Source of the DNA: a virus
Taxonomy: Duplodnaviria > Heunggongvirae > Uroviricota > Caudoviricetes
IMG/VR virus record: IMGVR_UViG_3300028797_000113
Length of the DNA stretch: 64,000 nucleotides
Strand: one strand, 5' to 3'
The position numbers and the translations under genes are program-made. The notes below the pieces were generated by a model. That model searched no databases. It was not told the DNA's origin and saw only the letters and a program-made list of their open reading frames with translations. Of this stretch, positions 15,780-57,336 are shown piece after piece; positions within the stretch are counted from its first letter, which is position 1; every line of letters starts with the position of its first letter.

Positions 15780-15817
15780 TTGCAATTGGTTTTATGTGTC
15801 AGGGAAAAGAGGAAAAA

Positions 15818-18181: not shown

Positions 18182-18331
18182 GCGACTTAAATACTGTACA
18201 AGATGCCCCAATCTAATAAAAACATATCCCCCCCAGTTATGTTTGTAATCTATATGAAAAACACCACAAGTGATGTGTTCCACTCAAACACATTAACCCA
18301 TTCGAGTGTCGCAGTACAGTTGCTCGAACAT

Positions 18332-28740: not shown

Positions 28741-28975
28741 ACTGCGAGAAGTTTTGTTTGATGAGTCTGGTAAAACGGCAGCATTTCTTAAAAAATGTCA
28801 CGAAGAATTTAAGAAAGAGAAAGGCTGTTCTACTTGCAAGAATCTAAAGCACGTCCGAGACTATCCGGGCTTTGTAGATGCAGAAGAGAACGAATGTACC
28901 GCTGGCCTTGAATGTGATACCGTTTTATTTTCGATTAAGAACTGTCCCAAATGGGAAGAAGGGGAACTGCTATGA
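28724..28975 (+). CDS. Cys-rich small protein
   Basis: 83 aa; CSTCKN...CTAGLECD...CPKW. Confidence 0.45.
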   Translation: MNAMNKLREVLFDESGKTAAFLKKCHEEFKKEKGCSTCKNLKHVRDYPGFVDAEENECTAGLECDTVLFSIKNCPKWEEGELL

Positions 28976-29280
28976 ATGATATGATTGCAAAAACACCTGT
29001 CTTAGAACTAATTGACAAAGTAGTCTACAGTCAAGAATGGGCTGAGTTTAGATTAGATTATGGTTCACGCGGACAAATCGAACTTATAAAAACCTTTATC
29101 ATGGAATCGTCTTCGGACAATTTCAAAATAGGTTATTGGAGAACCAGCCATGTGCCGAACGAAGATTATGTATGTTCTGAGTGCGGTGGCGCTTGTTGGT
29201 ATTACGACGTAGAAAAGGATGTGTCTAAAAGCAGATACTGTCCGAACTGCGGAGCGATGATGTGGGGATTTCATAAATGA
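28972..29280 (+). CDS. protein with C-terminal zinc ribbon
   Basis: ATG 28972; CSECGGACWYYD...CPNCGAMMW. Confidence 0.5.
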   Translation: MNDMIAKTPVLELIDKVVYSQEWAEFRLDYGSRGQIELIKTFIMESSSDNFKIGYWRTSHVPNEDYVCSECGGACWYYDVEKDVSKSRYCPNCGAMMWGFHK

Positions 29281-29546
29281 AAACGTGTGCAAATTGTATT
29301 TATAAAGACAGAGACTGGGGAGATAATCCCTGCCGTACTTGTTTTGGTGTTACCAGTGATTATGAAAATTGGACTGGCGTCGAAGATGACTATGATCCTG
29401 TGATATGTGCAGAATGCAGACACGCTGGGCCATGTACATACATCAAAGGTGTAGCATACTTGACTTGTGATTTAGAAAACCATAAGCCAATATTTAATAG
29501 TAAACCAAAATGGTGTCCGTTACATAAGGAGGAAAATGATGAATAA
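29277..29546 (+). CDS. Cys-rich small protein (MKxCxxC family)
   Basis: MKTCANCIYKDRDWGDNPCRTC...CAECRHAGPC. Confidence 0.5.
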   Translation: MKTCANCIYKDRDWGDNPCRTCFGVTSDYENWTGVEDDYDPVICAECRHAGPCTYIKGVAYLTCDLENHKPIFNSKPKWCPLHKEENDE

Positions 29547-29841
29547 ACAATATGGAAGTTATACAGATGCGGATTTAAACGATTGGCAGATGTTGCCTGA
29601 GAATAGCAGAGTTTTAACATCAAGTGCGTTTGGTGCGTGGTTGTTAAGACGCGACGAAAGAAAAGGCAATAGAGATTTAATAACAGAATTTGAAAAGGCA
29701 AAAGCAGAGATGGAAAAGAGAAGAAATGCTCTTGATGATGGTAACCTCAATGATTTCAAGAAATGCAAAATGCAAGGATATAGCGATTCAATGGGCATCT
29801 TAGACCATCGTATTGAAGAATTGAAAGGCGAGAAACAATGA
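29536..29841 (+). CDS. small protein ending in IEELKGEKQ (junction-motif family)
   Basis: C-terminal RIEELKGEKQ overlaps the start of the next gene. Confidence 0.5.
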   Translation: MMNKQYGSYTDADLNDWQMLPENSRVLTSSAFGAWLLRRDERKGNRDLITEFEKAKAEMEKRRNALDDGNLNDFKKCKMQGYSDSMGILDHRIEELKGEKQ

Positions 29842-30045: not shown

Positions 30046-30306
30046 ATGATAATCAAAATACTTTGTATTAGTTTGTTGGCCACAATGGGGATTTGTATTA
30101 TTTGTTTAATAGCAAAGATATTGGAATTAAAAGCGATAAATAAAATATTGGCTGACGAAAATGAAAAAATATATGAGCAATATAATTTAACACGTGGCAC
30201 ATATCACGATACAGTACAAATGTTTTGTCAGATGTGTGAACTGAAAGCAGAAGAATATAAACCAGACGATTGGGATTCATTAGCAAACGCAGAGCGTGAC
30301 CATTAA
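30046..30306 (+). CDS. small membrane protein
   Basis: IIKILCISLLATMGICIICLIAKI TM segment. Confidence 0.5.
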   Translation: MIIKILCISLLATMGICIICLIAKILELKAINKILADENEKIYEQYNLTRGTYHDTVQMFCQMCELKAEEYKPDDWDSLANAERDH

Positions 30307-30327
30307 GGAACTGAAAGGAGAACAGAA

Positions 30328-30552
30328 ATGATATATGTATATGAAAATGATATTTACGATAATCCGTCACGCGAAAAAATAAAATACAGTTCCGAACACA
30401 TACCGAGAGTCGGAGAAATTTTACACTTTCCACATATTGGTGGCTTTAAAGTTAAAGATGTTGCTTACGAAATATCTGATGACAGCGAAGAGAATACAAT
30501 AATGTGGGTTGAAGTATATGTTGATAAACTGAAAGGAGAAAACAAAAAATGA
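30328..30552 (+). CDS. hypothetical protein
   Basis: Junction motif gaactgaaaggagaacagaaATG; 74 aa. Confidence 0.5.
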   Translation: MIYVYENDIYDNPSREKIKYSSEHIPRVGEILHFPHIGGFKVKDVAYEISDDSEENTIMWVEVYVDKLKGENKK

Positions 30553-31565
30553 TGAACGGAAGATATACTTATGATGACTTCGAAAGAATGCGTGAGCAAG
30601 ACAAAAAGGAAGGAGACTCTATAGCCAAAAGGGTGTTGAGATATATTGGTTATGGCATAATCAGTGTGATTATTGTTTTAGTAATAGTATGCCTTTTTAG
30701 TTGCTTCTATTCAGTGGATGAACAGCACAACGCAATAATCACCCAGTTCGGACAGATTGTCAAAGTGAACACCGCTGGATTTTATTTTAAAGCGCCATGG
30801 CAGTCGGTTAAGAAAGTAGACATGACCACTCATGGCACATCTATAGGATATGTAATTGAAGATGATTCACAGAAAGGATCATATCCCGTAGACGAAGCGA
30901 ACGGCATAATGATAACTTCGGACTTTAATCTTTTAAATATAGACTTTTATATTGAATACAGAGTGTCAGACCCGGTCGCTTATGTTTATAATTCCAAAGA
31001 ACCCGAAGCCGTGTTAACAAACATAGCATTAGCGAATATTCGTACCATAGTTTCAAATTATACGGTTGACGAAGCTATGACTACGGGTAAAAATCAAATT
31101 CAGGCAGACATTAAATCGGCTATTCTCGATTCGCTTGAAACAAGAAATCTTGGATTATCAGTTGTAAATATAACCATTCAGGATTCCAGACCTCCCGTTG
31201 AAAGCGTAGAGTCTGCATTCAAAGCTGTTGAAACCGCAAAGCAAGGTGCCGATACTGCAATGAATAATGCTCTTCAATATCAGAACAGCGAGATACCCGC
31301 CGCAGACGCTAAGGCCGATGCAATCATCCAGCAGGCAGAAGCCAAAAAGACATCAAGAATTGCTGAAGCCACTGGTCAGGTTGAAAGATTTAATCAAATG
31401 TATGGACAGTATAAGCAGTTCCCTTTTACAACAAAAAAGAGACTGTTCTATGAGAAGTTAGAAGAAGTAATTCCGGGTTGCAAGATTATTATTACCGACG
31501 GCTCTACAGAAACGATGTACCCTTTGGAATCATTTATTAGCACCGAAACGGAAGGAGAACAATAA
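30549..31565 (+). CDS. hflK: SPFH/band-7 protein, HflK-like
   Basis: N-terminal TM; YSVDEQHNAIITQFGQIVKVNTAGFYFKAPWQSV SPFH core; coiled-coil Ala/Gln-rich C-terminal half. Confidence 0.75.
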   Translation: MMNGRYTYDDFERMREQDKKEGDSIAKRVLRYIGYGIISVIIVLVIVCLFSCFYSVDEQHNAIITQFGQIVKVNTAGFYFKAPWQSVKKVDMTTHGTSIGYVIEDDSQKGSYPVDEANGIMITSDFNLLNIDFYIEYRVSDPVAYVYNSKEPEAVLTNIALANIRTIVSNYTVDEAMTTGKNQIQADIKSAILDSLETRNLGLSVVNITIQDSRPPVESVESAFKAVETAKQGADTAMNNALQYQNSEIPAADAKADAIIQQAEAKKTSRIAEATGQVERFNQMYGQYKQFPFTTKKRLFYEKLEEVIPGCKIIITDGSTETMYPLESFISTETEGEQ

Positions 31566-32464
31566 TGAATAATCTTAAAAAGAAATTAATTATATTATTA
31601 TCGGTTATGAGCGTGGGCTTTGTTGTGTTGTTATTATTAGGTATCATCACATTCTTTTCTTCAACATACACGGTTAAACCCAATGAAACTGCCATCGTTG
31701 TACGATTAGGCAAGGCTCAATCATCAGTAAATACCGCCGGACTTCACTTCCACGCACCGTTTATTGAGAGTACAACGAAGATTTATACTGGCGATATGCT
31801 TTATGACATTCCTGTATCGGATGTTATTACGGCTGACAAGAAAACAATGATCGCTGACTGTTATGTTATTTGGTCGGTAACTGATTCTGTCAAATATTAT
31901 CAGACGCTAGGTGCCATTCAGGGAAGAGGAGAAGAAAGGGTTGAAGCGGCCGTATTTAATGCCGTTAAGAATACCATCTCTTCAATGACTCAGGACAACA
32001 TTATCGCCTCCAGAGGTTCAACACTTACGGATGAAATTACCACAGCGTCCAACTCGGATATATCACAGTATGGTATCACTATTGAGTTGGCAGAGATCAA
32101 AACTCTTGATTTACCAGACGATAATAAAAATGCGGTTTACGAGAGAATGATTTCGGAAAGAAATAACATTGCCGCAGGCTATACCGCTAAAGGCGATGCT
32201 GAAGCACAGAAGATTAAGAACAATACAGACAAGCAAGTATCTATTACTGTAGCAAATGCCGAAGCCGAAGCAGCCAAAATCGAAGCGGAAGGCGAAGCTG
32301 AGTATATGAAAATCTTGTCGGATGCCTATAACGACCCCGACAAAGCAGACTTCTACAATTTTGTAAGAAGTCTTGACGCTCTCAATTCTCTTAAGAGCAG
32401 CGATGCAACAATTATTTTAGATAAAGATTCTGAATATGCCCGAATACTTTACGGCGCAGAATAA
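31565..32464 (+). CDS. hflC: SPFH/band-7 protein, HflC-like
   Basis: N-terminal TM; YTVKPNETAIVVRLGKAQSSVNTAGLHFHAPFIEST; ATGA-coupled to the hflK-like gene. Confidence 0.75.
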   Translation: MNNLKKKLIILLSVMSVGFVVLLLLGIITFFSSTYTVKPNETAIVVRLGKAQSSVNTAGLHFHAPFIESTTKIYTGDMLYDIPVSDVITADKKTMIADCYVIWSVTDSVKYYQTLGAIQGRGEERVEAAVFNAVKNTISSMTQDNIIASRGSTLTDEITTASNSDISQYGITIELAEIKTLDLPDDNKNAVYERMISERNNIAAGYTAKGDAEAQKIKNNTDKQVSITVANAEAEAAKIEAEGEAEYMKILSDAYNDPDKADFYNFVRSLDALNSLKSSDATIILDKDSEYARILYGAE

Positions 32465-35631: not shown

Positions 35632-35868
35632 ATGGAAAAAGAAAAATATATGATAAAACTTTATAAGTGTCGTTTATGCGGAGAAGTTTTTGATGAAGGC
35701 ACTGCTCCTCAAAATAAGCATCATATTTTCATGTCAGATTTGGCCGTAGGAAAACATACCACACAACTGATAGCAGACAGAAGTGCGCACTATACAGATG
35801 ATCACATTGGTCTGGCCGACTTTATCGGTTTTAAGTATGTATTCAAGGAGGAGACAAACGATGTTTGA
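35632..35868 (+). CDS. hypothetical protein
   Basis: SD taaggagaacgcc; CRLCGE. Confidence 0.5.
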   Translation: MEKEKYMIKLYKCRLCGEVFDEGTAPQNKHHIFMSDLAVGKHTTQLIADRSAHYTDDHIGLADFIGFKYVFKEETNDV

Positions 35869-36106
35869 TTTTAAGACAAATGTATCATGTGTTTTAGAAA
35901 GTATATTTGCCGGGTTTAAAGATGAGAACATTAAGATGGCGGCAGATAAAATTACAGAACTTCATACAGATGAACTCGAAAGTTTAAAGACAGAAATAAA
36001 AAATCCAAAAACGTGTTTGTTTGCAGGAACTTACGAAGCAGATTGGATAATAGAACAAATCGTAGACAAACGCATTGCAGAACTGAAAGGAGAGAACAAT
36101 GAATAA
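35861..36106 (+). CDS. small protein of the ...RIAELKGENNE C-terminal family
   Basis: SD caaggaggag then ATG 35861; ends IVDKRIAELKGENNE overlapping the next start. Confidence 0.5.
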   Translation: MFDFKTNVSCVLESIFAGFKDENIKMAADKITELHTDELESLKTEIKNPKTCLFAGTYEADWIIEQIVDKRIAELKGENNE

Positions 36107-36263
36107 ACAAGAAACAATAGACGGACTTGAAATGTTGTTATTCTTTAATCAAAGAGCAGGTCGGGAACTTTGGCAAGAAAAATCAAAAGATGTTCAAGAT
36201 AAAGATATAGCAAAAGCCGAAGAAATATTGCAAAGTGCTATTGCAGAACTGAAAGGAGAATAA
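36099..36263 (+). CDS. small protein ending AIAELKGE (54 aa, not in ORF track)
   Basis: Starts at the ATG embedded in the junction motif; ends with the same motif. Confidence 0.45.
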   Translation: MNKQETIDGLEMLLFFNQRAGRELWQEKSKDVQDKDIAKAEEILQSAIAELKGE

Positions 36264-36266
36264 TCT

Positions 36267-36479
36267 ATGTCAAATAACGAAGTGAGTTATAGATATATAC
36301 ATCATAACAAATGTTCGGGTGGTAGAGCAACAAGAGAAGTTGACGGCAAAGATTATTGTTTAGGACTTCTTGATATGGCTTATGAATATAAATTCTGTGA
36401 TGAATGTTTAGAGTGTCCAAGATTTATCAACAACAATATAGACAGGATTGCAGAACTTAAAGGAGAGAACAATGAGTAA
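36267..36479 (+). CDS. Cys-rich small protein ending IDRIAELKGENNE
   Basis: CDECLECP; conserved C-terminal peptide. Confidence 0.5.
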   Translation: MSNNEVSYRYIHHNKCSGGRATREVDGKDYCLGLLDMAYEYKFCDECLECPRFINNNIDRIAELKGENNE

Positions 36480-36696
36480 CATAGTAATACAGACATTTCC
36501 CGATGGTTCTTCTTACATTTCAAAAACAAAAAATGAGCAGACTAAAGAAGAATTTGCTATTGCCGAACTTGAGAAATTAAGAGCAGAAATTGATGAATTT
36601 ATGATTATCTCATTTTTTGACGATGATGAGATTGATTATATAAGACATTGTTTTGACCAGCACATATCCGAACTGAAAGGAGAAAAGAATGGGTAA
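36472..36696 (+). CDS. small protein with ELEKLRAEIDEF ... HISELKGEKNG module
   Basis: ATG 36472 inside junction motif. Confidence 0.5.
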   Translation: MSNIVIQTFPDGSSYISKTKNEQTKEEFAIAELEKLRAEIDEFMIISFFDDDEIDYIRHCFDQHISELKGEKNG

Positions 36697-36970
36697 AATA
36701 TATTGGGACGAAGGCAACGGAAAAGTTACCACAGATTCAAGTTATGCACCTATTATTAAGGGGCAAAACATTTACATTGAAACCTATGAGATTTACGGAA
36801 CTAACGAAAGAATAAGTATAGCATACACACAAAGTATCAAAGACAATGAAAATATGTACTATTTCAGAAAACGAATACTGAATGCTCACAGACTTGAATA
36901 TTGTGATTTGGGAAAATTAGTTAAGTTTGAAGTACCAAGTAAAGTCTATAAAATGTTGGCGAGGAACTGA
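36689..36970 (+). CDS. hypothetical protein
   Basis: Starts in junction motif; 93 aa. Confidence 0.5.
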   Translation: MGKIYWDEGNGKVTTDSSYAPIIKGQNIYIETYEIYGTNERISIAYTQSIKDNENMYYFRKRILNAHRLEYCDLGKLVKFEVPSKVYKMLARN

Positions 36971-37000
36971 AAAGAGAAAAGAAATAAAGGAGTTAAACAA

Positions 37001-37258
37001 ATGAAAAAAGATTGTTGGAACTGTAAAAATGACTATCGATATGAAAAATTTCCTTGTGATTATTGTCATTCAGAAAATATAAACGATTTTTGGAAGCCAA
37101 AAGACGAAATGAAAGATTTTGCTATTGAAGAACTTGAAGAAATAAAGACAGAAATACATCAGATAACTATGAGTGGTTTACTTGGAACAACATTGGTTAG
37201 AGTAGAGAAAGTTGACAATATTATTGATAATCGTATAAAGAAGTTAAACAATGAATGA
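37001..37258 (+). CDS. small protein with ELEEIKTEIHQI ... IDNRIKKLNNE module
   Basis: ggagttaaacaaATG junction variant; N-terminal CWNC...CDYCHS. Confidence 0.5.
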   Translation: MKKDCWNCKNDYRYEKFPCDYCHSENINDFWKPKDEMKDFAIEELEEIKTEIHQITMSGLLGTTLVRVEKVDNIIDNRIKKLNNE

Positions 37259-37811
37259 ATTACCATATAAAGAATGTCAGTATTGTAAACATAAAGAGTG
37301 GTGCGAAAAACATAGACCTATGTGCAAAGGAGTTAAACAATGAAGAAACCGAGATATAATGCTATGGCAAAAGCAAGAGAAAAATACCTTGCAGACAAAA
37401 ATAAAAAACGCAGAGCAAGGGGAAAACAAAAGAAATGCGATTATGATTGCAAAAAATGTGTTTGGAAAGATACAAATTGTTCGGTAGGAAGGAGTTAAAC
37501 AATGACAGCACTAAATAAAAAACGCAAATGTCATAATACTCTTTATGATAGGGGCGGCGAAAAAGGAAAATATCAAAAAGGCAAAGGTTTTCTTATGTTT
37601 CATAAAAAAGACCGGGTGAGATTAAATGCAGAAGTACACAAAGGAGAATAAAGAATGAATAAATACTGTAAATTCAATGATGGGCACTTTACCTATTATG
37701 TCAATACTTTGACAGGAGAGAAGAAGTTTGAACTTGAAGAAGGAGACATTGAAGTAGAGTCAAATCTTGACGATTTTAGCAGAACAAGAAAAAAGGAGCA
37801 ACAGAATGAAT
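37251..37811 (+). other. run of four tiny Lys/Cys-rich ORFs (about 30-51 aa, not in ORF track)
   Basis: About 37251-37343, 37340-37495, 37502-37648 and 37655-37811; the first three each start at a ggagttaaacaATG junction, the fourth at aaggagaataaagaATG. Confidence 0.35.
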
Positions 37812-37982
37812 AAAGGAATTAAGCAAAATTATTGTGTTGTGATCGACTATAAGGACGGTAGAGAATGGGAGTGGTGCTCAACATTACTTGAAGCAATAGG
37901 CAAAGGTAGACGGGCCGTTAAAGATGATAATGTTAAAAGAGCACACCTGACAATCAATTTTTGGAAGGAGAATAAACAATGA
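37806..37982 (+). CDS. hypothetical small protein
   Basis: ATG 37806 after aaggagcaacag; 58 aa. Confidence 0.4.
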   Translation: MNKGIKQNYCVVIDYKDGREWEWCSTLLEAIGKGRRAVKDDNVKRAHLTINFWKENKQ

Positions 37983-38257
37983 GCGATATGCCAAGGGAAG
38001 AAGCCATAGAGATATTAGAAGGCGCAATCAAAAAACCAAATACAAAAGACGGATATTTAGGGCAGGCTTTAACAATGGGAATTGAAGCACTTAAAAATCA
38101 AAAGTCATTACAAACTGAACTTGAAGAAATAAAGGCAGAAATACACGATATTAGACTTGAAATTGATTGTGATAGTCACACAGGCGATAAAGTAATTCAG
38201 TTAATAGACAAAAGAATATCCGAACTGAAAGGAGAGAACAATGAAACTGATAATTGA
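37979..38257 (+). CDS. mosaic small protein (EAIEIL...GIEALKNQK N-module plus ELEEIK...ISELKGENNE C-module)
   Basis: N-module shared with the 39336 ORF; C-module shared with the 36472, 37001, 38480 and 39082 ORFs. Confidence 0.55.
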   Translation: MSDMPREEAIEILEGAIKKPNTKDGYLGQALTMGIEALKNQKSLQTELEEIKAEIHDIRLEIDCDSHTGDKVIQLIDKRISELKGENNETDN

Positions 38258-38480
38258 TATAGACGAAAAAACTCTTAATAGGATAATAAACACTAAACAA
38301 ATATCACAAAGGGAAGAAGTATATCTTGTGAATAGTATGATAAACGGCACACCACTTCGAACAGGACATTGGATAGATAAAGGTTCATTGTCTTGCAGAT
38401 GTTCGGAGTGTGGTTGTAAATCAAATAAAGAAACAAGGTTTTGTGCTAATTGTGGTGCAAAAATGGAAGGAGATAACTAA
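38241..38480 (+). CDS. mosaic small protein (MKLIIDIDE N-module plus GHWI...CGAKMEG zinc ribbon)
   Basis: N-module shared with the 38480 ORF; C-module shared with the 11998, 12363 and 39336 ORFs. Confidence 0.55.
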   Translation: MKLIIDIDEKTLNRIINTKQISQREEVYLVNSMINGTPLRTGHWIDKGSLSCRCSECGCKSNKETRFCANCGAKMEGDN

Positions 38481-38746
38481 TGAAATATATAATTGATATA
38501 GACGAAGATTTATTTAATGAATTATTACAAGGGACAGCATCTAATAAGCAAAATGATAAAATTCTTAAATGTGTGAAAAAAGCCGAACTTTTACAGGAAG
38601 AACTTGAAGAAATAAAGAAAGAGATTTTCGATTTGCCGACATTTCCTTTTGTTTATAATCGTGAAGCAGAGTGTATTGTAAAATCACATATAGCATTTTT
38701 AATGGATAGAAAAATAAAGGATTTAAACAATGAAACTGATAAATAG
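38480..38746 (+). CDS. mosaic small protein (MKYIIDIDE N-module plus ELEEIK...KIKDLNNETDK C-module)
   Basis: See the two preceding entries; TAG stop. Confidence 0.55.
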   Translation: MKYIIDIDEDLFNELLQGTASNKQNDKILKCVKKAELLQEELEEIKKEIFDLPTFPFVYNREAECIVKSHIAFLMDRKIKDLNNETDK

Positions 38747-38872
38747 ACTCCTAAATATATTCAAACATAAAAAAGATATACAAAATGTATTTTTAGAAAG
38801 ATTTAAAAGTTCTGATGAAAGTCTTTCGCTTGAAAATTTGAAATTGACTAACAGTATAAAGGAGAATAAAGA

Positions 38873-39085
38873 ATGAGTGATATTTTAATTATTATAGCCT
38901 TATTCATAATCGCAATAGTCGAAGTAATAAGAATGGTTCAGAACTGTATTCAGATTCATTACATAAACAAAGATACAGGGGCAAGAGATAACGCATACAA
39001 TGAGTTTGTTAAAAGCCTTAAATATACCGATAAGGAATTTGTTGAAAGAATGTTAAGAGAGTTTGAAAAGGAGAATGAAGAATGA
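38873..39085 (+). CDS. small membrane protein
   Basis: ILIIIALFIIAIVEVI TM segment. Confidence 0.5.
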   Translation: MSDILIIIALFIIAIVEVIRMVQNCIQIHYINKDTGARDNAYNEFVKSLKYTDKEFVERMLREFEKENEE

Positions 39086-39339
39086 ACATAATATATGGTA
39101 GAGACGGAAATGTTTATAAAACTTCAATTAGTAATGGTAAAGAATATATGTCGTCAAAAAAAGAAAAAGAAGAATTTGCCATTGCCGAACTTGAAAAGAT
39201 AAAAGACGAAATGAATGTCGAATTGTTTGAAGAATATTCGGCAGAAAGAGAATTTGATAGGGGTTATGAATCTTGCTTAAAACAACAAATTAACAGGATA
39301 GACAATCACATTAAGGAACTGAAAGGAGAGAACAAATGA
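39082..39339 (+). CDS. small protein with ELEKIKDEMN ... IKELKGENK C-module
   Basis: Conserved C-terminal family. Confidence 0.5.
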   Translation: MNIIYGRDGNVYKTSISNGKEYMSSKKEKEEFAIAELEKIKDEMNVELFEEYSAEREFDRGYESCLKQQINRIDNHIKELKGENK

Positions 39340-39590
39340 CAAATCAAGAAGCAATAGAAGTATTAAAGTTAAACAATCCGTTTATGGCGGGCAAAGATAA
39401 AGAAAACTTTTCAAAGGCGATTGATAAAGGCATAGAAGCACTTGAGAATCAGAAGATAGGACATTGGATAAAAGACGAAATGAGCATAATGTTTGACATT
39501 TGGGTATGTTCTGAATGTGGCGGTGGTGGAGATAAACATTTTAAATATTGTCCTCATTGTGGGGCAAAGATGGAAGGAGAGAAGAAATGA
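39336..39590 (+). CDS. mosaic small protein (EAIEVL...GIEALENQK N-module plus GHWI...CPHCGAKMEGEKK zinc ribbon)
   Basis: Modules as described above. Confidence 0.55.
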   Translation: MTNQEAIEVLKLNNPFMAGKDKENFSKAIDKGIEALENQKIGHWIKDEMSIMFDIWVCSECGGGGDKHFKYCPHCGAKMEGEKK

Positions 39591-40534
39591 GAACAATAAC
39601 AAAAACACATACAGGAATCATCGTTTCAGATGAGGAATTAAAACTGGAATATCTTTACGTGGGAGATTACGGCAAGGAAAACAACATCAAGGCAGACTTC
39701 CTTGGTTATAACAAGAGAATTGATAAGGTCGAACATAAAGACGTCGACATAACCGATAAGCTGGTTGTTACGGTGTCTTCTCAAAAGGGTTGCCCTATGA
39801 AGTGCGACTTTTGTGACTGTCCTAAATATGGTTATCACGGTAATGCTTCGTTGGGTGAGTTAATGTCTGAGATTTCAACCGCCGTATCGTTGTCCGGGAT
39901 TCAACACGGTAAGAGATTGAATATCCACTTCGCAAGGATGGGAGAACCTACATTCAATCCGAATGTTATTCAGGCAGCGAGAATAGCCTATTATACTTTC
40001 AAGAGACAGTTTGACGAATATCATCCCGTCGTATCTACAATGTGTCCAAAGAGCAATAAAAACTTGGCAGACTTTTTATACAAATGGGTAGATGCAGGTT
40101 ATGTGTTTGGTGGTGACGACGGTTACGGCCTTCAGTTTTCTATTAACACTCTCGACGAAGAAGCTCGTAATAAAGCATTTAATAATATGTCTCTTTCTTT
40201 ACAGGAAATCGGCGATTTAATCCAAGAGTTACCCGACCCGAAGAAAAGAAAATTTACTCTGAACTTTGCCGTAACATCCGAAAGCAATCTTGATCCGGTC
40301 CTTATGGATAAATACTTTGACAAAGAAAAATGTATCGTAAAGATTACGCCTATTCACGAAACCTTTGAAGCCATCAGTAATGGCTATGAAATCATAAAGA
40401 GTTTTGATGTGTATGAGAAGTTTGAAAAGCCACTTGTCGACGCTGGCTGGGACGTTATCGTATTTGTTCCTTCGGAAGAAGAAGACGCCGACAGAATCAC
40501 TTGTGGAAATTCGTTAATCGCAAAGGAGGGTTAG
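39587..40534 (+). CDS. RlmN/Cfr-family radical-SAM RNA methyltransferase homologue
   Basis: VVTVSSQKGCPMKCDFC (Cx3Cx2C cluster in RlmN-like VSSQxGC context), FARMGEPTFNP (MGMGEPL-like) and C-terminal DADRITCGNSLIA (DIDAACGQL-like). Confidence 0.7.
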   Translation: MRTITKTHTGIIVSDEELKLEYLYVGDYGKENNIKADFLGYNKRIDKVEHKDVDITDKLVVTVSSQKGCPMKCDFCDCPKYGYHGNASLGELMSEISTAVSLSGIQHGKRLNIHFARMGEPTFNPNVIQAARIAYYTFKRQFDEYHPVVSTMCPKSNKNLADFLYKWVDAGYVFGGDDGYGLQFSINTLDEEARNKAFNNMSLSLQEIGDLIQELPDPKKRKFTLNFAVTSESNLDPVLMDKYFDKEKCIVKITPIHETFEAISNGYEIIKSFDVYEKFEKPLVDAGWDVIVFVPSEEEDADRITCGNSLIAKEG

Positions 40535-40535
40535 T

Positions 40536-40787
40536 ATGAAAAGAATATTAATATTTTTATGTATGATTTGTGCTTTAGGGTTTTGCGGATGCGGTAAAGC
40601 AACCGAGACAGACAAGCCCAGTGACAGTATGTTTGTGATTGTCGAAGGCGGAGGATTAAATTCTTATATAATTGCTTATCACAAAGAAACAAAAGTGATG
40701 TATGCCGTTTCAAACGGAGTCAACAACAGCGGTACATTTATGGTATTGGTCAATCCCGACGGGACACCTATGATATATGAGGAGTAA
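40536..40787 (+). CDS. putative secreted protein or lipoprotein
   Basis: Signal-like MKRILIFLCMICALGFCGCG N-terminus. Confidence 0.5.
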   Translation: MKRILIFLCMICALGFCGCGKATETDKPSDSMFVIVEGGGLNSYIIAYHKETKVMYAVSNGVNNSGTFMVLVNPDGTPMIYEE

Positions 40788-40792
40788 ATAAT

Positions 40793-41059
40793 ATGAAACT
40801 TTATAGAAAACAAATAAGACCTATGTTATATTCTCCTGCCACTCAAGGTTTTAGTGACACTTACGAACCTTTAGTAAAACAGTGGTACAATGAAGAAGAT
40901 GTGACACCAGCAAAAATAGAGATGTGGAAACAATCTATAGAACAAATAGATGCTTGGGGCTCATTGAGGCTCGCAGAAAGATATGTAGAATATGTCGATT
41001 GTAAATTTACTCATCAAGAACCATCGTTTGAAGAAGAATACGATATAAGGAGTGAATAA
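40793..41059 (+). CDS. hypothetical protein
   Basis: 88 aa. Confidence 0.5.
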   Translation: MKLYRKQIRPMLYSPATQGFSDTYEPLVKQWYNEEDVTPAKIEMWKQSIEQIDAWGSLRLAERYVEYVDCKFTHQEPSFEEEYDIRSE

Positions 41060-41060
41060 T

Positions 41061-41477
41061 ATGGCTAAAAAAGATTGTTATTTTTACAGAGCAAGCACTG
41101 TTGCGTCTGGAGGTTTCCCTGAATGCTGCATTCACCCGGACACGCCCGATAAACCTAAGTGTTCTAAATGTAATTTATATATAGACAGAAATGGGTTATT
41201 CCCTTACGTTGTTGATATGAGCCGAGAAAATAAAAAGAAACTGGAAGCTCAAGAAAGCAGCGTAACGGCCAGTCAGATAGTTGCGAGTTGGTACGAGACA
41301 GAACCACGGCCAATAAAAGACTATGTTGACAACACAAGATATGTCACAGCGATATGCAGATGTCCTGTGCCTCTTACGATGGGCATAGTAATAGACAAAG
41401 AAAAATGTATAAGTGACGACGGATGGTATCATTTCCGTTGTACGAAATGCGGATTGAGAGGAAAAGTTTATGGATAA
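41061..41477 (+). CDS. Cys-rich protein
   Basis: ATG 41061; CCIHPDTPDKPKCSKC ... CRCP ... CTKCG. Confidence 0.5.
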   Translation: MAKKDCYFYRASTVASGGFPECCIHPDTPDKPKCSKCNLYIDRNGLFPYVVDMSRENKKKLEAQESSVTASQIVASWYETEPRPIKDYVDNTRYVTAICRCPVPLTMGIVIDKEKCISDDGWYHFRCTKCGLRGKVYG

Positions 41478-41736
41478 AGACGAAATATACGAAAACATAG
41501 GTTTATTATATGAGCAAGCCGAATATGAAGATGAACTGACTGGACGCATCAATAGTTATCGGTGGGAAATGGGCCTTGGTGTTTTTGGAACATTGTACTC
41601 GGATTGTGTAAAAACATATAAAGAGTTCAAAGAACAGACAGGTATTGACGTACAAGGAACATTGTGGGGTTATCCAGTAGATGTAAATCCTAACGCACCT
41701 TTTGATACATTAAAACTTTGGAAAGAGGTTAAGTAA
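41470..41736 (+). CDS. hypothetical protein
   Basis: 88 aa. Confidence 0.5.
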   Translation: MDKDEIYENIGLLYEQAEYEDELTGRINSYRWEMGLGVFGTLYSDCVKTYKEFKEQTGIDVQGTLWGYPVDVNPNAPFDTLKLWKEVK

Positions 41737-42168
41737 ATGGATGATTTTATGCAGGCATTCCGTGATATTGTCATAGAAGAGTTTGGAGGTAGACCCTCTC
41801 CATATCGTGACATAATTTCGCAAAGATTCATCAATCAACTGGAAGAAATGTATCGTCAATCACGCATAAGACAATGCGGTTGTGACGATTATGATGAATA
41901 TCTGTATAAATATTCTGGTGTCATTTCTGAAATTTATGAACACGTTTGCAGAGATATTGTAAATTATCAACATCTTATCAACAAGCGTGGATATTTAATT
42001 GACATAACATTATACGAAAAAATGGTAAAGGACGGCTTGATAAAAAATGATATAACTCGTATATTAAATATGTTAGACAAGATGGCTGATGTAGCACCAG
42101 TTGAATTTGACCTTGAAAATTTGCCGAGAAAGATACCACGTAAGAGTAAGAGGAAACCGTATGAGTAA
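41737..42168 (+). CDS. hypothetical protein
   Basis: 143 aa; coupled to the polymerase gene. Confidence 0.5.
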   Translation: MDDFMQAFRDIVIEEFGGRPSPYRDIISQRFINQLEEMYRQSRIRQCGCDDYDEYLYKYSGVISEIYEHVCRDIVNYQHLINKRGYLIDITLYEKMVKDGLIKNDITRILNMLDKMADVAPVEFDLENLPRKIPRKSKRKPYE

Positions 42169-45100
42169 TTTTATTTTTCAGAATTATCACAAGCATACAT
42201 ATTGGTCTAATATTAAAGTCCCCGATTCAGCAACTTCCCTTGAAGAATATTGCAAGCGTGCCGTTGAATTAGGCCATGGAATTATCTGTTCTCTTGAACA
42301 CGGCTGGCAAGGACATTATATTGAGTGTCATCAGTTAGCAGAAAAGTACGGTCTTAAGTTCGTGTTCGGTACTGAAGCCTACTGGGTTAAGGACAGACAC
42401 GAGAAAGACGGTTCTAACTGTCATATTTGTATCTTGGCAAAGAATGAGAACGGAAGACAGGCGATCAATGACATTCTGTCTCAGGCAGCTATTGACGGTT
42501 ATTACAGACAGAGTCGTATTGACTTGCCTTTAATAATGACATTGCCTCCCGAAGATGTTATCATCACAACTGCTTGTGTTGCGTTCTGGAAGTATGACGA
42601 TATTGATTCAATAATTAAGCAACTCTTTAATCGTTTCGGAAAGAACTTCTATCTTGAAGTTCAGTATCACAATACACCTTCCCAAAAACAAACAAATAAA
42701 CACATCCTTGATTTGAGAAAGGAATTAGGCATCCAACTGATGATGGGTTGTGATAGTCATTACATAGACCAGAAAGGCGCTTTAGACAGAGATGAGTTTA
42801 TCAAATCTAAAGGTATGGAATATCCCGACGAGAATGACTGGTATATGGACTATCCTGACGGCGAAACTGCTTACAGAAGATTCGTTGAGCAGTGCGTTCT
42901 TGACCACGAACAGATTATGGAGGCCATGAATAATACAAATATCTTTCTTGAAGTTGAAGAATATGACTGCCCTATCTTTAATCACGACATTAAGATGCCT
43001 ACTTTATATGCCGATTTGACGCAACAGGAGCGCGATAGCAAGCTCGAAGCGTTGATATGGGATAAATGGTCAGAGTACAAAAAAGAAGTGCCCACAGAGC
43101 GCCACAGTGAATATGAAGAGCAAATCAAATATGAACTTGACATCGTAAAGACAACTTTTCACTCTGATTATTTCTTACTTGACTATGCAATTACTCAGTT
43201 AGGTAAGAAGAAAGGTGGACAACTTACGCTTACTGGCAGAGGTTCGGGCGTGTCATTCTTCTTAAATAAACTTTTAGGCTTTACATCTGTTGACAGAATA
43301 TCTGCCAAAGTAAAAATGTACCCTGAAAGATTTATGTCACCCACTCGTATTCTTGAAACACATTCATTAGCAGATATTGATATGAATGTGGCCAGACAAG
43401 AACCGTTCTGGGAGGCGCAAGAAGAATTATTAGGATTCGAGCATTCCAAACAGATGGTTACATTCCAACAGTTGAAGCCTGCTGCCGCTTGGAAAATGTA
43501 TGCGAAGTCACAAGGTGTTGACTTTGAAACATCGAATGCGATTTCCGGGCAGATTGCAAAGTACCTGAAGGATTATGCCAAGGCTAAAGAAGAAGCAGAC
43601 GACGATGAAGAAATTGACATCGACATTCTTGACTATATTGATGAGAAATATAAAGACATATATTTAAAGAGCGAAGATTATCTCGGTGTAATATCTGCCG
43701 TTTCCAGTCATCCTTGCGGCTCTTTAATATATGCAGGCAATATCCGTAAGGAAATCGGATATATTTATGTTAAGTCACAATCCAGTGACGGTATGCTTTG
43801 TTGTTGTATGGACGGCAAGTGGGCTGAGAAGTACGGCTTCTTAAAGAATGACTGGCTTAAGGTTAATGTAGTGGAAGTAATCTATAAAATCTTTGAGCGT
43901 ATAGGCATGGAACCGTTCTCATCCACGGAACTTATTGAGAAATGCAAAGATGATCCGTTGCCTTGGAACTTATATAAGCAACAATGCACCAAAGGACTTA
44001 ATCAGGTTGAACAGCCTTCAAGTTCAACTAAAGTTGGCGCGTATGCGCCCAAAAATATATCCGAGTTAACGGCTTTCGTGGCAGCAGTCAGACCGGGTTT
44101 CAAATCTATGTATGACATTTTCGAATCGAGAGAGCATTTCGATTACAAGATTCCCGCATTTGATAATTTGTTACAAACAGATGAAATGCCTAACTCATTT
44201 GTGCTTTATCAGGAACAAGCGATGCTTACCTTGAACTACGCTGGCATTCCTATGAGTGAATGCTACGCGGTTATTAAAGCCATTTCGAAAAAGAGAGTAG
44301 ATGAAATCACAAAGAACAAACCTATCTTCATTGATGGCTTCCAAAAGAGACTCAAAGAAGACGACGGCAGCATTTCAGACATTAAGGCCGAGGAGGTAGC
44401 ACATCAAGTATGGCAGATTATTGAAGACAGTTCTAAATATTCATTCAATTCCGCGCACGCTTATTCTGTTGCATTAGACAGCTTATATCAGGCATGGCTC
44501 AAATCGCACTATCCGTTAGAATTTTATGAGACATATCTGAATATACTTAACAAGAAAGGCGCTAAGGACAGATTAAATAAATTCAAAGAAGAAGCAGAAC
44601 ATTACTTCAAGATTTATTTCCCGCCTTATAAATTTAGACAGGACAACAGAAGTATTACTATTGACCACGAGAATAACGCCATTAATAACGCGCTATCATC
44701 CATTAAGGGTTACAGCAATATTGTTGCCGAAGAATTATATACAGCCAGCGCTTATCACGATTTTATTAGCGTGTTGACATATCTGGATGGCGTGTCTATT
44801 AAATCAGCAAAGATTATACCGTTAATCAAAATAGGTTACTTTAGCGAGTTCGGTAACGAGAAAGCGTTGCTAAAGTTTATGGATTATTGGGATATGCTCA
44901 AGCAAGGCAATGCAAAGCAAATATCCAAAGACAAGGTTGATGACATCATAGGAAAATATTCAGCATATTATGGTAACGACAAGAATAAAGACGGTTCTGA
45001 ATCAAAATCGTGGAAGTTAGATGCGGACAGAATGCCCGACTTCCTTCAGGACATTCTGCAAGATTGCGTTGATAACATTCCGGCTCCGACGTACAAAGAA

Positions 45101-45406
45101 AGAATGGCTTGGCAACAAGAAATTTTAGGATATATTGAACTCACTACTGGCAAGAAAGAAGATACTAAAAAGATTTTGGTACTTGACGTTAAGCCCTTAA
45201 TCGGCCAGTATTCTCCTAATCCTTGGTGCTACAAGGTCGACACTCGTTCCATAGGTACTGGAAGAAGCGCTACGCTTAATGTAGATGCAAGAACGTGGGA
45301 CGCTTACGGTCCGTTGAAATGTTTTGACATAGTAGACGTTGGTCGTCTGGCTAAAAACAAAAAAGGTTATTGGTATATGTATGATTACAGAAAGGTGGCA
45401 GAATGA
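42161..45406 (+). CDS. dnaE: DNA polymerase III alpha subunit (DnaE-type, short form with N-terminal PHP domain)
   Basis: ATG 42161 after aggaaacc; MSNFIFQNYHKHTYWS PHP start, ...SAHAYSVALDSLYQAWLKSHYP polIII-alpha palm/fingers signature; 1081 aa. Confidence 0.85.
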   Translation: MSNFIFQNYHKHTYWSNIKVPDSATSLEEYCKRAVELGHGIICSLEHGWQGHYIECHQLAEKYGLKFVFGTEAYWVKDRHEKDGSNCHICILAKNENGRQAINDILSQAAIDGYYRQSRIDLPLIMTLPPEDVIITTACVAFWKYDDIDSIIKQLFNRFGKNFYLEVQYHNTPSQKQTNKHILDLRKELGIQLMMGCDSHYIDQKGALDRDEFIKSKGMEYPDENDWYMDYPDGETAYRRFVEQCVLDHEQIMEAMNNTNIFLEVEEYDCPIFNHDIKMPTLYADLTQQERDSKLEALIWDKWSEYKKEVPTERHSEYEEQIKYELDIVKTTFHSDYFLLDYAITQLGKKKGGQLTLTGRGSGVSFFLNKLLGFTSVDRISAKVKMYPERFMSPTRILETHSLADIDMNVARQEPFWEAQEELLGFEHSKQMVTFQQLKPAAAWKMYAKSQGVDFETSNAISGQIAKYLKDYAKAKEEADDDEEIDIDILDYIDEKYKDIYLKSEDYLGVISAVSSHPCGSLIYAGNIRKEIGYIYVKSQSSDGMLCCCMDGKWAEKYGFLKNDWLKVNVVEVIYKIFERIGMEPFSSTELIEKCKDDPLPWNLYKQQCTKGLNQVEQPSSSTKVGAYAPKNISELTAFVAAVRPGFKSMYDIFESREHFDYKIPAFDNLLQTDEMPNSFVLYQEQAMLTLNYAGIPMSECYAVIKAISKKRVDEITKNKPIFIDGFQKRLKEDDGSISDIKAEEVAHQVWQIIEDSSKYSFNSAHAYSVALDSLYQAWLKSHYPLEFYETYLNILNKKGAKDRLNKFKEEAEHYFKIYFPPYKFRQDNRSITIDHENNAINNALSSIKGYSNIVAEELYTASAYHDFISVLTYLDGVSIKSAKIIPLIKIGYFSEFGNEKALLKFMDYWDMLKQGNAKQISKDKVDDIIGKYSAYYGNDKNKDGSESKSWKLDADRMPDFLQDILQDCVDNIPAPTYKERMAWQQEILGYIELTTGKKEDTKKILVLDVKPLIGQYSPNPWCYKVDTRSIGTGRSATLNVDARTWDAYGPLKCFDIVDVGRLAKNKKGYWYMYDYRKVAE

Positions 45407-45609
45407 ATTTATTTGACAAAGATTCCCGAGAAACAATCGAAATTATTTTAGCAAGAAGAAAAAAAGCATTCGAAGATTTTCTCTCAAACAGCGGATGTCA
45501 CGATTGCCCCAAGATAATGCATTGCCAAAGAAATGAATTTGAAGCAGAATGGTGTTCTCGTTTTGCTGATTTTTATAACGAGGAATATGGCAAGAATGGA
45601 AGGAGATAG
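45403..45609 (+). CDS. Cys/His small protein
   Basis: GCHDCPKIMHCQ. Confidence 0.5.
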   Translation: MNLFDKDSRETIEIILARRKKAFEDFLSNSGCHDCPKIMHCQRNEFEAEWCSRFADFYNEEYGKNGRR

Positions 45610-45610
45610 A

Positions 45611-45958
45611 ATGAAAAGAAATTACAAAGACGAACCAGTTGTAGAGCTTGTGTTTGAAATGAAAGACGGAATGACATATCACGCTTTCGGAACGCCAATC
45701 CGCGAAGAAATAGGATTCTTGAGCGATATATGCCTGCTCTGGACAAAGGATGAATTTATGCGATTACCGATCAAGCAAAGAATGGTGTTGCCGTTTGCGT
45801 TTTATCTGCCGCATTCAGACTTATCCTTTAAAAGTGATGGCGGTTTTATAAGTATATTCAGGAATAATAATCTTTTATTTATGCTTAACCGCAACGAAAT
45901 CAAAAGAATTATATCGGGCATAAACGACTGTCTTGTTGACTTTCGTGAACAAACGTGA
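45611..45958 (+). CDS. hypothetical protein
   Basis: SD ggaggagatag then ATG 45611. Confidence 0.5.
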   Translation: MKRNYKDEPVVELVFEMKDGMTYHAFGTPIREEIGFLSDICLLWTKDEFMRLPIKQRMVLPFAFYLPHSDLSFKSDGGFISIFRNNNLLFMLNRNEIKRIISGINDCLVDFREQT

Positions 45959-45996
45959 TATATTAACCATACGAGTGAGAAGATAAAGGAGAACAA

Positions 45997-46236
45997 ATGC
46001 TTCACGAAATCAAAATCACGGAAGAACAATACAACCACATAGAATCTATCAGGTATGACCTACCTCAAAAATTCCGATACGTCTCAAAAATATTATCCCC
46101 AAAGTACAAGATAACAGAAGAAACAACCTTTATCACATATAAAGACCCGTGGCACTTCTATCTTGTGTTTGAGTGTGATATTAATGAGCCTGCTAAAACG
46201 GACGAGACTGAAAAGAAAAAGGAGAACGACGTATGA
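45997..46236 (+). CDS. hypothetical protein
   Basis: SD aaaggagaac; 79 aa. Confidence 0.5.
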   Translation: MLHEIKITEEQYNHIESIRYDLPQKFRYVSKILSPKYKITEETTFITYKDPWHFYLVFECDINEPAKTDETEKKKENDV

Positions 46237-46400
46237 GTTTTGTAGAAGATTTAATTTCTGAAATGAACAAAGTCAAAGTCTATGACGTAGTAGACAATGA
46301 CAAGCCTATCAAAACGATAGAATGTAGTGTCGTATGCGACATCATCACGGTACTTTTAGACAAGTACGGAATTGGGGTGGACAATGATTTACATGGATAA
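46233..46400 (+). CDS. hypothetical small protein (55 aa, not in ORF track)
   Basis: ATG overlapping upstream stop; overlaps the NifS-like start. Confidence 0.3.
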   Translation: MSFVEDLISEMNKVKVYDVVDNDKPIKTIECSVVCDIITVLLDKYGIGVDNDLHG

Positions 46401-56895: not shown

Positions 56896-57336
56896 TCAAG
56901 CGGTTCTCGTAATACGAACGGAACCATTATTTACGTTGATTGTCGGTGTGGGGGTTGCTTCTTCTGACACGTAGCGCACCGCTACGGTGAAACAACAACC
57001 GCGAGGGACTGTTATCGAAGTTGTACTGGTCAAATTTCCAAGGGTGTCTACATCAATGGGTGAATAGGTAGCAATACTTTCTTCCTTTACTTCTCCATTT
57101 TCCGTAATTCCAATCGAGATAGGCACTGCATCAGCAGCGTCTTCGGGGATTGAAACATTACCATTGAAAGTGACAATATATCTTGCGAAACAGTTATTTG
57201 TGATTCCTCTGAGAATAAAAATTCCTGAACCATCTTCGTGATAAATACCACCATTGGTACAAGGAATAGATGCGTTAAACGGAATGGCGCTATTTAAAGC
57301 GACACTGACCGGGTTATTAGCAATATATTCTGCCAT
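56896..57336 (-). CDS. beta-rich structural protein (possible fibre tip or exosporium-like domain)
   Basis: 146 aa, Thr/Ser/Asn/Gly/Ile-rich, CC pair. Confidence 0.45.
   Translation of the reverse strand: MAEYIANNPVSVALNSAIPFNASIPCTNGGIYHEDGSGIFILRGITNNCFARYIVTFNGNVSIPEDAADAVPISIGITENGEVKEESIATYSPIDVDTLGNLTSTTSITVPRGCCFTVAVRYVSEEATPTPTINVNNGSVRITRTA

Follow-up and report, generated by a model that had tools for sequence, protein, structure and literature searches.

A repeated 22-nt coding-tail and ribosome-binding junction in a mosaic array of small phage genes

The DNA analyzed here is a 64,000-nucleotide (nt) stretch of a Caudoviricetes genome, IMG/VR record IMGVR_UViG_3300028797_000113; this whole stretch is called the window, and the array that is our subject is its 35632..39590 part. 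The array, on the + strand, consists of 19 closely packed small genes, g01 to g19, encoding proteins of 30–93 amino acids (aa) each, many of which are combinations of N-terminal heads (N1, N2) and C-terminal tails (C1, C2). Two short repeated sequences, junction 1 and junction 2, sit at the gene boundaries. An earlier note, made from the letters of the sequence, had described at least 12 genes of 50–110 aa joined by one junction. Its observations held in part, with the counts overstated: there are more and smaller genes, and junction 1 is found at six of the internal boundaries of the array and junction 2 at five. The genes are the following:

35632..35868 (+): g01, with a match to phrog_16725
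35861..36106 (+): g02, with a C1 tail
36099..36263 (+): g03
36267..36479 (+): g04
36472..36696 (+): g05, with a C1 tail
36689..36970 (+): g06
37001..37258 (+): g07, with a C1 tail ending in KKLNNE
37251..37343 (+): g08, 30 aa, with a weak Shine–Dalgarno sequence, AAGAAG
37340..37498 (+): g09
37502..37651 (+): g10
37655..37813 (+): g11
37806..37982 (+): g12
37979..38257 (+): g13, an N2+C1 chimera, N2 part at 37988..38107 and C1 part at 38117..38235
38241..38480 (+): g14, N1+C2 (zinc ribbon), C2 block at 38361..38476
38480..38746 (+): g15, N1+C1, with a KDLNNE tail and junction 2
38730..38876 (+): g16, with a weak Shine–Dalgarno sequence, AAAGGAT
38873..39085 (+): g17
39082..39339 (+): g18, with a C1 tail
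39336..39590 (+): g19, an N2-like head with a C2 zinc ribbon

An AGGAG Shine–Dalgarno (SD) sequence lies about 7 nt upstream of the ATG in 17 of the 19 genes, the exceptions being g08 and g16, and most genes are linked to the preceding one by start/stop overlaps of the form ATGA or ATGAATAA. The array is AT-rich (33% GC) with a strong purine skew, and the reading frames are unbroken across every junction. When the 28–42 kb region was scanned with consensus patterns, 70 promoter-like sites were found, compared to 47 in shuffled sequences, none of them at a junction; terminator-like sites in the same region were not enriched (8 versus 7.6 expected) and were likewise absent from the junctions. 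Rfam families in the window were limited to three tRNAs, and RNAalifold predicted no consensus base pairs over the seven copies of junction 1. Since no promoter, terminator or RNA structure marks the junctions, and since start and stop codons overlap, a single polycistronic unit of translationally coupled small genes is the simplest reading and most likely the correct one.

Junction 1 (GAACTGAAAGGAGAGAACAATG, 22 nt) occurs in five copies with at most three mismatches, starting at 36080, 36453, 36670, 38222 and 39316, and was not seen in 100 shuffled sequences. Its core, GAACT[GT]AAAGGAG, adds the copies at 36246 and 30308, which brings the total in the window to seven; every one of them is on the + strand, with an ATG 5–8 nt downstream, and the − strand has none. 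As the earlier note had recognized, the motif comprises the codons E-L-K-G-E-N-N-E-stop of the upstream gene, the SD sequence GAAAGGAG and the ATG of the next gene, the two genes being connected through the overlaps described above. Junction 2 (GGAGTTAAACAATG) has four copies with at most one mismatch (37240, 37329, 37491 and 38719), where 0.03 would be expected, and a fifth, at 36989..37003, with one additional A. All the sites previously listed for the two junctions were recovered, including the variants of junction 1 at 36246, 29818 and 30308, and a third repeat at ribosome-binding sites (RBSs) was found:

36080..36101 (+): junction 1, exact, between g02 and g03, inside an overlap at 36065..36102 that matches both ends of an extra 1 kb in the relative L001
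36246..36269 (+): junction 1, partial, GAACTGAAAGGAGAATAATCTATG, between g03 and g04
36453..36474 (+): junction 1, one mismatch, Leu codon CTT, between g04 and g05
36670..36691 (+): junction 1, two mismatches, between g05 and g06
38222..38243 (+): junction 1, exact, between g13 and g14, at the 3′ limit of the C1 block common to L151 and L104
39316..39338 (+): junction 1, spacer longer by 1 nt, between g18 and g19
30308..30330 (+): junction 1 outside the array, preceded by the stop codon of a gene for a membrane protein
29818..29840 (+): a diverged form of the junction, GAATTGAAAGGCGAGAAACAATG, closing the C1 gene 29536..29841
37240..37253, 37329..37342, 37491..37504, 38719..38732 and 36989..37003 (+): junction 2 (GAAGTTAAACAATG), the first copy between g07 and g08
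37640..37658, 37964..37982, 38858..38876 and 39067..39085 (+): third RBS repeat, AAAGGAGAATAAAGAATGA, family D4, four copies

No repeat in the array is longer than 41 nt. The C1 proteins of g07 and g15 end in KKLNNE and KDLNNE, respectively (37240..37258 and 38719..38746), instead of ELKGENNE. These tails look like products of a deletion of 9 nt, AAAGGAGAG, which is the SD itself, leaving g08 and g16 with their weak SDs.

Junction 1 is conserved as DNA and not just as protein, on three grounds. First, CTG makes up 9.1% of the Leu codons in the genes of the window, yet six of the seven junctions use it. Second, among ten C1 genes, the mean nt identity is 77% in helix 1 (ELEKIKAEI) and 69% in the junction, compared to 38% in the C1 core and 42% at the 5′ ends of the genes. 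Third, at 30308 a stop codon precedes the junction (CAT TAA GGAACTGAAAGGAG), so that the motif is intact although it is not translated in the ELKGE frame; in L001, that slot is occupied by a different gene, for which the matching junction forms the coding tail (NRIKELKGEQE). All genes of the phage share a general RBS consisting of AAGGAG and an A-rich spacer, which accounts for the 3′ half of junction 1, but not for GAACT. Judging from the anti-SD sequence of Firmicutes, we take GAACT to be outside the stretch available for pairing with 16S rRNA. The core was found 45 times on the + strand of 1.65 Mb of related loci and never on the − strand.

The modular composition of the proteins was examined by BLASTP and with hidden Markov models (HMMs) of the modules. 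The N1 head is of a helical type, MKLIIDIDE..NGTPL, and the N2 head of another, AIKKPNTKDGYLGQA..AIKALEQ. In the C1 tail, a variable loop connects two helices, and the C2 tail is a predicted zinc ribbon, GHWI..CSECG..CPNCGAKM. These modules are distributed in the window as follows:

C1: g02, g05, g07, g13, g15 and g18, and the open reading frames (ORFs) 11018..11284 and 29536..29841
C2 (zinc ribbon): g14 and g19, and the ORFs 11998..12351, 12363..12665 and 28951..29280
N1: g14 and g15, the only two in the window
N2: g13 and g19, the only two in the window
11018..12665 (+): another small group of module genes, located between the genes for the integrase and Erf
28951..29841 (+): additional module genes, with C2 at 28951..29280 and with C1 at 29536..29841

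All four combinations of head and tail are present: N2+C1 in g13, N1+C2 in g14, N1+C1 in g15 and N2+C2 in g19. The combinatorial nature of the proteins proposed in the earlier note was thereby borne out, as was the presence of the zinc ribbon in the 11998 and 12363 ORFs, to which the copy at 28951..29280 can be added. The stretch common to the N1 copies is only about 16 aa, the N2 copies of g13 and g19 are 39% identical, and modules within this genome generally share 30–50% aa identity. Such low values indicate that the copies within the genome are old relatives and not recent duplicates.

Matches in other genomes were much closer. The N2 part of g13 (37988..38107) is 88% identical at the nt level to L149 and L150, where it precedes a C2 ribbon, and the C1 part (38117..38235) has 94% identity to L151, in which the head in front of it is unrelated. 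Likewise, the C2 block of g14 (38361..38476) is 97% identical to L148, in which it is found behind an N2-like head. These alignments indicate that g13 and g14 are chimeras by origin. The breakpoints inside the genes fall after AATCAAAAG (encoding NQK), and at GAACTTGAAGAA (ELEEIK), ACAGGACATTGG (TGHW) and AAAGGAGA. The sharp edges at NQK, ELEEIK and TGHWI imply that swaps between N- and C-terminal modules use conserved linkers within the genes.

The N2 head was 75–90% identical in 117 of 120 matches and was joined to at least 19 unrelated C-terminal partners, including C1-type, C2-type, DUF551, Cys-rich and other tails. The ribbon of the g14 type, GHWxDKGSLSCRCSECGCKSNKE..CPNCGAKM, was near-invariant in 120 matches, with at least 46 unrelated N-terminal partners. 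Both counts are rough lower bounds, since partners were grouped by single-linkage clustering, which fused the C1 and C2 partners into one cluster. A search with an N2+C1 profile gave 1,489 clusters at 50% identity, and KGE, EGE and RGE tails are also present on C2 proteins and in other phages. About half of the array genes are members of a very large superfamily of small phage proteins made of two modules. In an HMM census of relatives outside the window's own lineage, C1, N1 and N2 were not found within 10 kb of the radical SAM gene that follows the array.

Close relatives showed how the gene content of the array varies. The contig L001, from ENA, is 98–99% identical to the window over the DNA that they have in common, and its arrangement is also found in the JGI contigs L003/L005, L114 and L125. 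The window and L001 differ by four insertions/deletions (indels) or replacements, all of which end in a junction or an SD–ATG region. In the first (event a), L001 carries an additional 1 kb with five genes, four of which are C1 genes with other heads; the flanking high-scoring segment pairs (HSPs) overlap by 38 nt in the window (36065..36102), which implies one copy of the junction at each end of the L001 insert. In the second (event b), 37799..39567 (+), comprising g12–g19, is present in the window and L002 and absent from L001, L003 and L114, and ends in AAGGAG...ATGA. In the third (event c), the gene 30046..30306 is swapped in L001 for an unrelated C1-type gene, with the similarity resuming inside the junction CATTAAGGAACTGAAAGGAG. 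In the fourth (event d), the gene 40794..41046 is replaced in L001 between two SD–ATG sites. Eleven of the 24 distinct genes are common to the two near-identical arrays of the window and L001. The fixed, invariant gene set that the earlier note had named beforehand as speaking against a recombinationally diversifying family was thus not observed; the gene set varies among relatives, with modularity on a large scale.

The events in L001 and L125 together define 12 breakpoints, 11 of which are no more than 35 nt away from a start codon. From breakpoint to start, the distance had a median of 14.5 nt, compared to 121.5 nt for random positions, and none of 20,000 random sets had a median as low. 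Most of the array, as part of 36309..46000, has 100% identity to L002, an independent contig from ENA, and the alternative arrangement was seen again in ENA ERZ27257204, JGI Ga0310786_10000768 and JGI Ga0265300_10000783. Among GenBank phages, the search for close relatives returned a single, uninformative match of 124 nt (Dulem virus 37).

Junction 1 is also present in other phages. With an exact-pattern scan, the identical 22-mer was located in 54 metagenome contigs and in 9 from IMG/VR, most of which do not otherwise resemble the window; most of the junction-bearing contigs came from a small group of JGI samples, and about 8–10 of them are chance matches in front of ordinary bacterial genes. 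In phage-like contigs, many C1 proteins end in the 22-mer, as do proteins that are not related to C1 in L088 (217 aa), L091, L092, L099, L100, L140 and L142, and the contigs carrying it on such unrelated proteins share little or no further DNA with the window. Two further contigs, L087 and L090, are 99.7–100% identical, L090 being without exactly one gene (L087 8643..9204). Here, the HSPs overlap by 22–23 nt, CCGAACTGAAAGGAGAGAACAA, and in this independent lineage the event runs cleanly from one junction to the next. When the flanks of 88 junction occurrences were compared, 23 pairs shared at least 75% identity in a 90-nt flank, and 18 of the 23 did so on one side only; of the five two-sided pairs, four were chance matches in bacterial orthologues. 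L102 and L115 have one gene in common between two junctions, while the surrounding DNA is otherwise unrelated. The junction is a habit of this lineage and community and not a general device.

Two genes upstream of the array bear on how such exchanges might occur:

13451..14227 (+): Erf-like single-strand annealing protein (phrog_155, 2.6e-42)
14236..14760 (+): NinB/Orf mediator (phrog_72, 2e-13)

By their family matches, these two genes likely constitute recombination machinery. Rad52-like recombinases, Erf included, recombine short, diverged homology and drive mosaicism (PMC3945230). We think it probable that homologous recombination at the repeated coding-tail/RBS linker drives exchange in this hyperplastic accessory-gene array. 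The last codons of C1 double as a strong RBS and the start of the next gene, and according to this model the junction patch would serve as a short stretch of homology, as suggested by the direct repeats at many gene boundaries and their occurrence in other phages. The Erf-type annealing recombinase of the phage, or else the host machinery, would recombine at the junction, leading to deletion, insertion, duplication or replacement of whole-gene cassettes, and the junction together with the linkers inside the genes (NQK, ELEEIK and TGHWI) would lead to exchange of protein modules. Homologous recombination at the junction would then be the cause, and not a selective filter on joins made at random. 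The earlier suggestion that the junction is the site of module exchange holds in so far as it coincides with the breakpoints of exchange. Because it lies between genes, however, it bounds whole-gene cassettes and the 3′ edge of C1, while the swaps between N- and C-terminal modules take place at the intragenic linkers, so that the interpretation offered in that note was supported in part.

A broader proposal, which we put forward tentatively, is that the junction is a selected, horizontally spreading "plug-and-play" linker of a gut and rumen phage community, with which any suitably tailed gene could insert in frame, and translationally coupled, at any copy in any phage that has it. It would then be a translation-level counterpart of promoter-early stem-loops (PeSLs) or of integron attC sites, operating through general annealing recombinases, and would drive the combinatorial diversification of the superfamily, with its more than 1,000 clusters of two-module effector proteins.

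Several observations weigh against recombination at the junction as the driving force. In event a, the two copies in L001 share only 14 + 5 identical nt near the inferred crossover, which is not clean. The breakpoints away from the junction (21609, 26117, 27071, 40796 and 41047) are equally close to SD–ATG sites, and with these as tightly linked to starts as the others, part of the pattern is generic gene-boundary mosaicism. The junction closes every C1 paralogue and would therefore flank any indel among them that is precise to the gene. Every gene has AAGGAG with an A-rich spacer, and the non-junction breakpoints are tied to starts to the same degree, so selection against joins that disrupt genes could yield much of the pattern with no mechanism based on homology. 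The loci in the flank comparison were themselves found by searching for the junction and are subject to ascertainment bias. Finally, about 75 more distant relatives that carry the radical SAM gene have no junction at all.

The main rival to homologous recombination at the linker builds on several of these points. It holds that the junction is a by-product of paralogy and of purifying selection for a strong RBS and translational coupling, and that recombination is illegitimate and independent of homology, with only joins at gene boundaries surviving (a Hendrix-type model). This would account equally well for the non-junction events, given that the AAGGAG and A-rich spacer consensus is found at all genes and that those five breakpoints are also at SD–ATG sites. 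The C1 genes are true paralogues, and the KGE, EGE and RGE tails on C2 proteins and in other phages are what an SD embedded in coding sequence would lead one to expect. It does not explain the exact 22–23-nt junction at both ends of the gene missing in L090 relative to L087, the junction at 30308 that has been retained out of frame, or the same 22-mer on unrelated proteins in phages otherwise without DNA similarity. The fixation of the rare CTG codon, and GAACT, which presumably lies beyond 16S rRNA pairing, also speak against it. On balance, we regard it as rather unlikely to be the whole explanation.

The junction might instead be a recognition site, either for an RNase cutting at GGAG, for a homing-type nuclease or for a regulatory RNA-binding protein. 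The RegB protein of phage T4 is an RNase that inactivates early mRNAs at GGAG. The conservation that reaches 5′ of the SD into GAACT, where ribosome binding offers no explanation, and the strict strand specificity of the motif would both fit. However, no nuclease or RegB-like gene was found among the ORFs scanned, the junction has no RNA structure, and the motif is missing from most relatives that have the rest of the gene set, making a recognition site improbable.

It is highly improbable that the repeats and arrangements are artefacts of collapsed or chimeric metagenome contigs: although the assemblies are metagenomic and the region contains short direct repeats, these do not exceed 41 nt and the ENA names (k141_...) suggest assembly k-mers longer than that, L002 reproduces the arrangement of the window at 100%, g13 was recorded from both JGI and ENA, the alternative arrangement was recovered in the three assemblies named above, and the frames are intact across every junction. 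Similarly, the conserved ends and hypervariable middle of C1 might recall targeted mutagenesis of its core, for instance by a diversity-generating retroelement, but this has hardly any chance of being right, because the cores vary in length (18–27 aa) and are unalignable rather than point-substituted, no reverse transcriptase was found among the ORFs scanned, and whole modules of 88–97% nt identity with sharp edges are a signature of recombination.

The array resembles several known systems. The hyperplastic regions of T4-type phages contain PeSL cassettes (Arbiol et al. 2010, PMC2839356; Comeau et al. 2014, PMC4122927), in which a sigma-70 promoter and a terminator stem-loop are located in intergenic DNA (PMC2839356, PMC4122927). 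In both cases, short repeats lie between small, non-essential, mostly ORFan genes, the motif itself has a role in gene expression, and the repeat bounds indels or replacements between near-identical phages (here, the window versus L001 and L087 versus L090). The junction described here differs in having no promoter, terminator or RNA structure; a promoter or terminator role like that of PeSLs was ruled out, there being none at the junctions. Instead, the element is an SD and start codon within the last eight codons of the upstream gene, to which it adds a peptide tail, and the phages are of a gut or rumen Clostridia type with PolIII-alpha and not T4-like. By this comparison, the junction array can be regarded as a translational analogue of PeSL elements.

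Short conserved boundary ("linker") sequences are a part of the modular theory of phage evolution, as discussed by Pope et al. (2011, PMC3029335; see its references 21 and 22 for the proposal). In the gp67/gp68 case of the mycobacteriophage Island3, an inserted gene shares about 50 bp, corresponding to 18 C-terminal residues, with the upstream gene (PMC3029335), and boundary sequences cannot be found at most mosaic boundaries (PMC3029335). Homologous recombination at short conserved gene-boundary sequences, in the same geometry, is what the junction repeats resemble, with the difference that here a single motif recurs 7–10 times per genome and is also found in phages without other extended similarity. 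The modular theory calls for the same short sequence in phages that are dissimilar on at least one side, and this is what the 18 of 23 one-flank pairs display. The array works like PeSLs and like the boundary sequences of modular theory, but its element, a translational signal joined to a peptide at the C-terminus, does not qualify as a PeSL.

A third comparison is with lambda's exo–xis region, where Ea22 is mosaic, with a common N-terminal/coiled-coil part and portable C-terminal domains that include DUF551 (PMC10834534). The small, early, dispensable genes of variable content are reminiscent of those in the array, and fusions of N2 to DUF551 were found among the homologues (P0085, P0103, P0104 and P0116). 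The module cluster at 11018..12665, between the integrase and erf, would be the positional equivalent, judged by position and architecture only, while the main array is located among replication genes.

Database searches revealed little about the proteins themselves. Searches of Pfam and PHROGs with the 19 genes gave, beyond weak zinc-ribbon and DUF hits, only phrog_10714 for g19 and phrog_16725 for g01. The match of g19 to phrog_10714 (E = 3e-10) aligned residues 1–83 with profile positions 4–103 of 109. DUF7130 (PF23458) scored 19.2 bits with g14 and 17.4 bits with g19, below the gathering cut-off of 35 bits, and precomputed hits to PF23458 exist for the close N2+C2 homologues P0010, P0140, P0153, P0159, P0166 and P0219. 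The zinc-ribbon families of Pfam (Zn_Ribbon_1 and DZR) scored 18.9 and 18.8 bits, also below their cut-offs. In the predicted ribbon, C52, C54, C57, C59, C68 and C71 are invariant in 39 homologues. An AlphaFold2 (AF2) model of g14 had a poorly defined head and a ribbon of beta-strands with a predicted local distance difference test (pLDDT) score of about 90, whereas g13 was modeled as three helices (pLDDT 82), one of them a long helix that spans the N2/C1 boundary. No significant neighbors of g13 or g14 were found in the PDB with Foldseek searches of the AF2 models or PDB profile searches. Membership of the Lar family (PF14354/phrog_6422) was not apparent for g19, which matched phrog_6422 only at E = 0.043, but in the homologues P0180 and P0202 a Lar-like N-terminal part is fused to C2, and P0180 alone carries PF14354 and the name "Lar family". 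DUF7130, PHROG 10714 and the zinc-ribbon families carry no functional assignment and do not capture the combinatorial architecture seen here.

The accessory, variable nature of the genes, their location in the replication/early region, the exo–xis-like position and the DUF551 and Lar fusions favor a role in host interaction. By analogy, the proteins may be dispensable host-interaction factors, acting in host takeover or counter-defence, as the earlier note had also proposed, in which recombined heads and tails would vary the specificity. Two findings speak against this role: the predicted structures are generic, a helical bundle and a zinc ribbon, and no match to a characterized anti-defence protein was found in Pfam, PHROGs, PDB and homologue searches, which did not include a dedicated anti-defence library.

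The phage that carries the array, about 110–130 kb in length, is probably temperate and probably infects Clostridia, the data being from gut or rumen metagenomes. Contigs with an identical radical SAM protein span 108–130 kb. The assignment of the host is a hint given by one confirmed locus, L153, in a metagenome-assembled genome (MAG) of Candidatus Fimenecus sp. (Clostridia; JAZSDZ010000098.1). This locus, a probable prophage, has an N1-type gene (MKLVIDIPEE..NGTPLPKGHG) and an N2-type gene at 3022..3339 and 4001..4354, with Cys-rich and zinc-ribbon tails; both adjoin a DNA-methylase-like ORF. As such, it is a hint of the host range of the superfamily. Other features of the window include:

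6926..7930: tyrosine integrase
22458..24380: primase-helicase
30549..32464: a tandem pair of SPFH/Band 7 genes (338 aa and 299 aa) in the early region
39587..40534: radical SAM gene (phrog_24834, E = 1e-74; CPMKCDFCDC motif)
42101..45406: PolIII-alpha

The radical SAM protein, 56–100% identical at the aa level, was found in at least 276 IMG/VR contigs (40–225 kb), always directly 3′ of a variable block of small genes, and in the window a class-V aminotransferase gene (46372..47484) lies downstream of it. A search of the 75 distant relatives for SD-type junctions of another sequence gave none, and the repeated 14-mers that it turned up are unrelated. The sequence TTTTTTGGATCCAT is present seven times in L063 (IMGVR_UViG_3300028048_000115), and AACCCCTTGACAAA, which is promoter-like, four times in L014/L015, in each case within 20 kb of the radical SAM gene; such repeats may have a regulatory role of their own. 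Tandem runs near the same gene include (ACAG)n in L018, L020 and L056, and (AGAGC)n in L021.

Further upstream, 15794..17296 encodes a 500-aa protein matching phrog_850 ("RNA-binding protein", E = 7e-139), directly upstream of three tRNA genes, and tRNA was the only Rfam family detected near it. One of the three, at 18110..18183 (+) between tRNA-Asn and tRNA-Gln(ttg), has the anticodon CTA of an amber suppressor and was called tRNA-Pyl by ARAGORN. TAG splits two pairs of same-frame ORFs on the − strand, 53083..55215 and 55231..55977, and 56896..57336 and 57349..58158, which could reflect TAG read-through or recoding in late genes. TAG terminates 12 of the 108 predicted genes on the + strand.

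The origin of phage mosaicism has long been debated, with one side favoring random joining filtered by selection, and the debate has been short of natural systems with a clearly identifiable boundary sequence. With a single 22-nt motif at many boundaries, clean one-gene indels, and occurrence in unrelated phages that encode annealing recombinases, linker-mediated mosaicism becomes directly testable, and the array offers an unusually clear natural case in which to test it. Since C-terminal "KGE" tails are dictated by the RBS of the next gene, they call for caution in annotation. In addition, the array brings to light a very large superfamily of small phage proteins, as yet without a name, whose heads and tails are often reshuffled, and which may provide a natural library for host-interaction or counter-defence functions.

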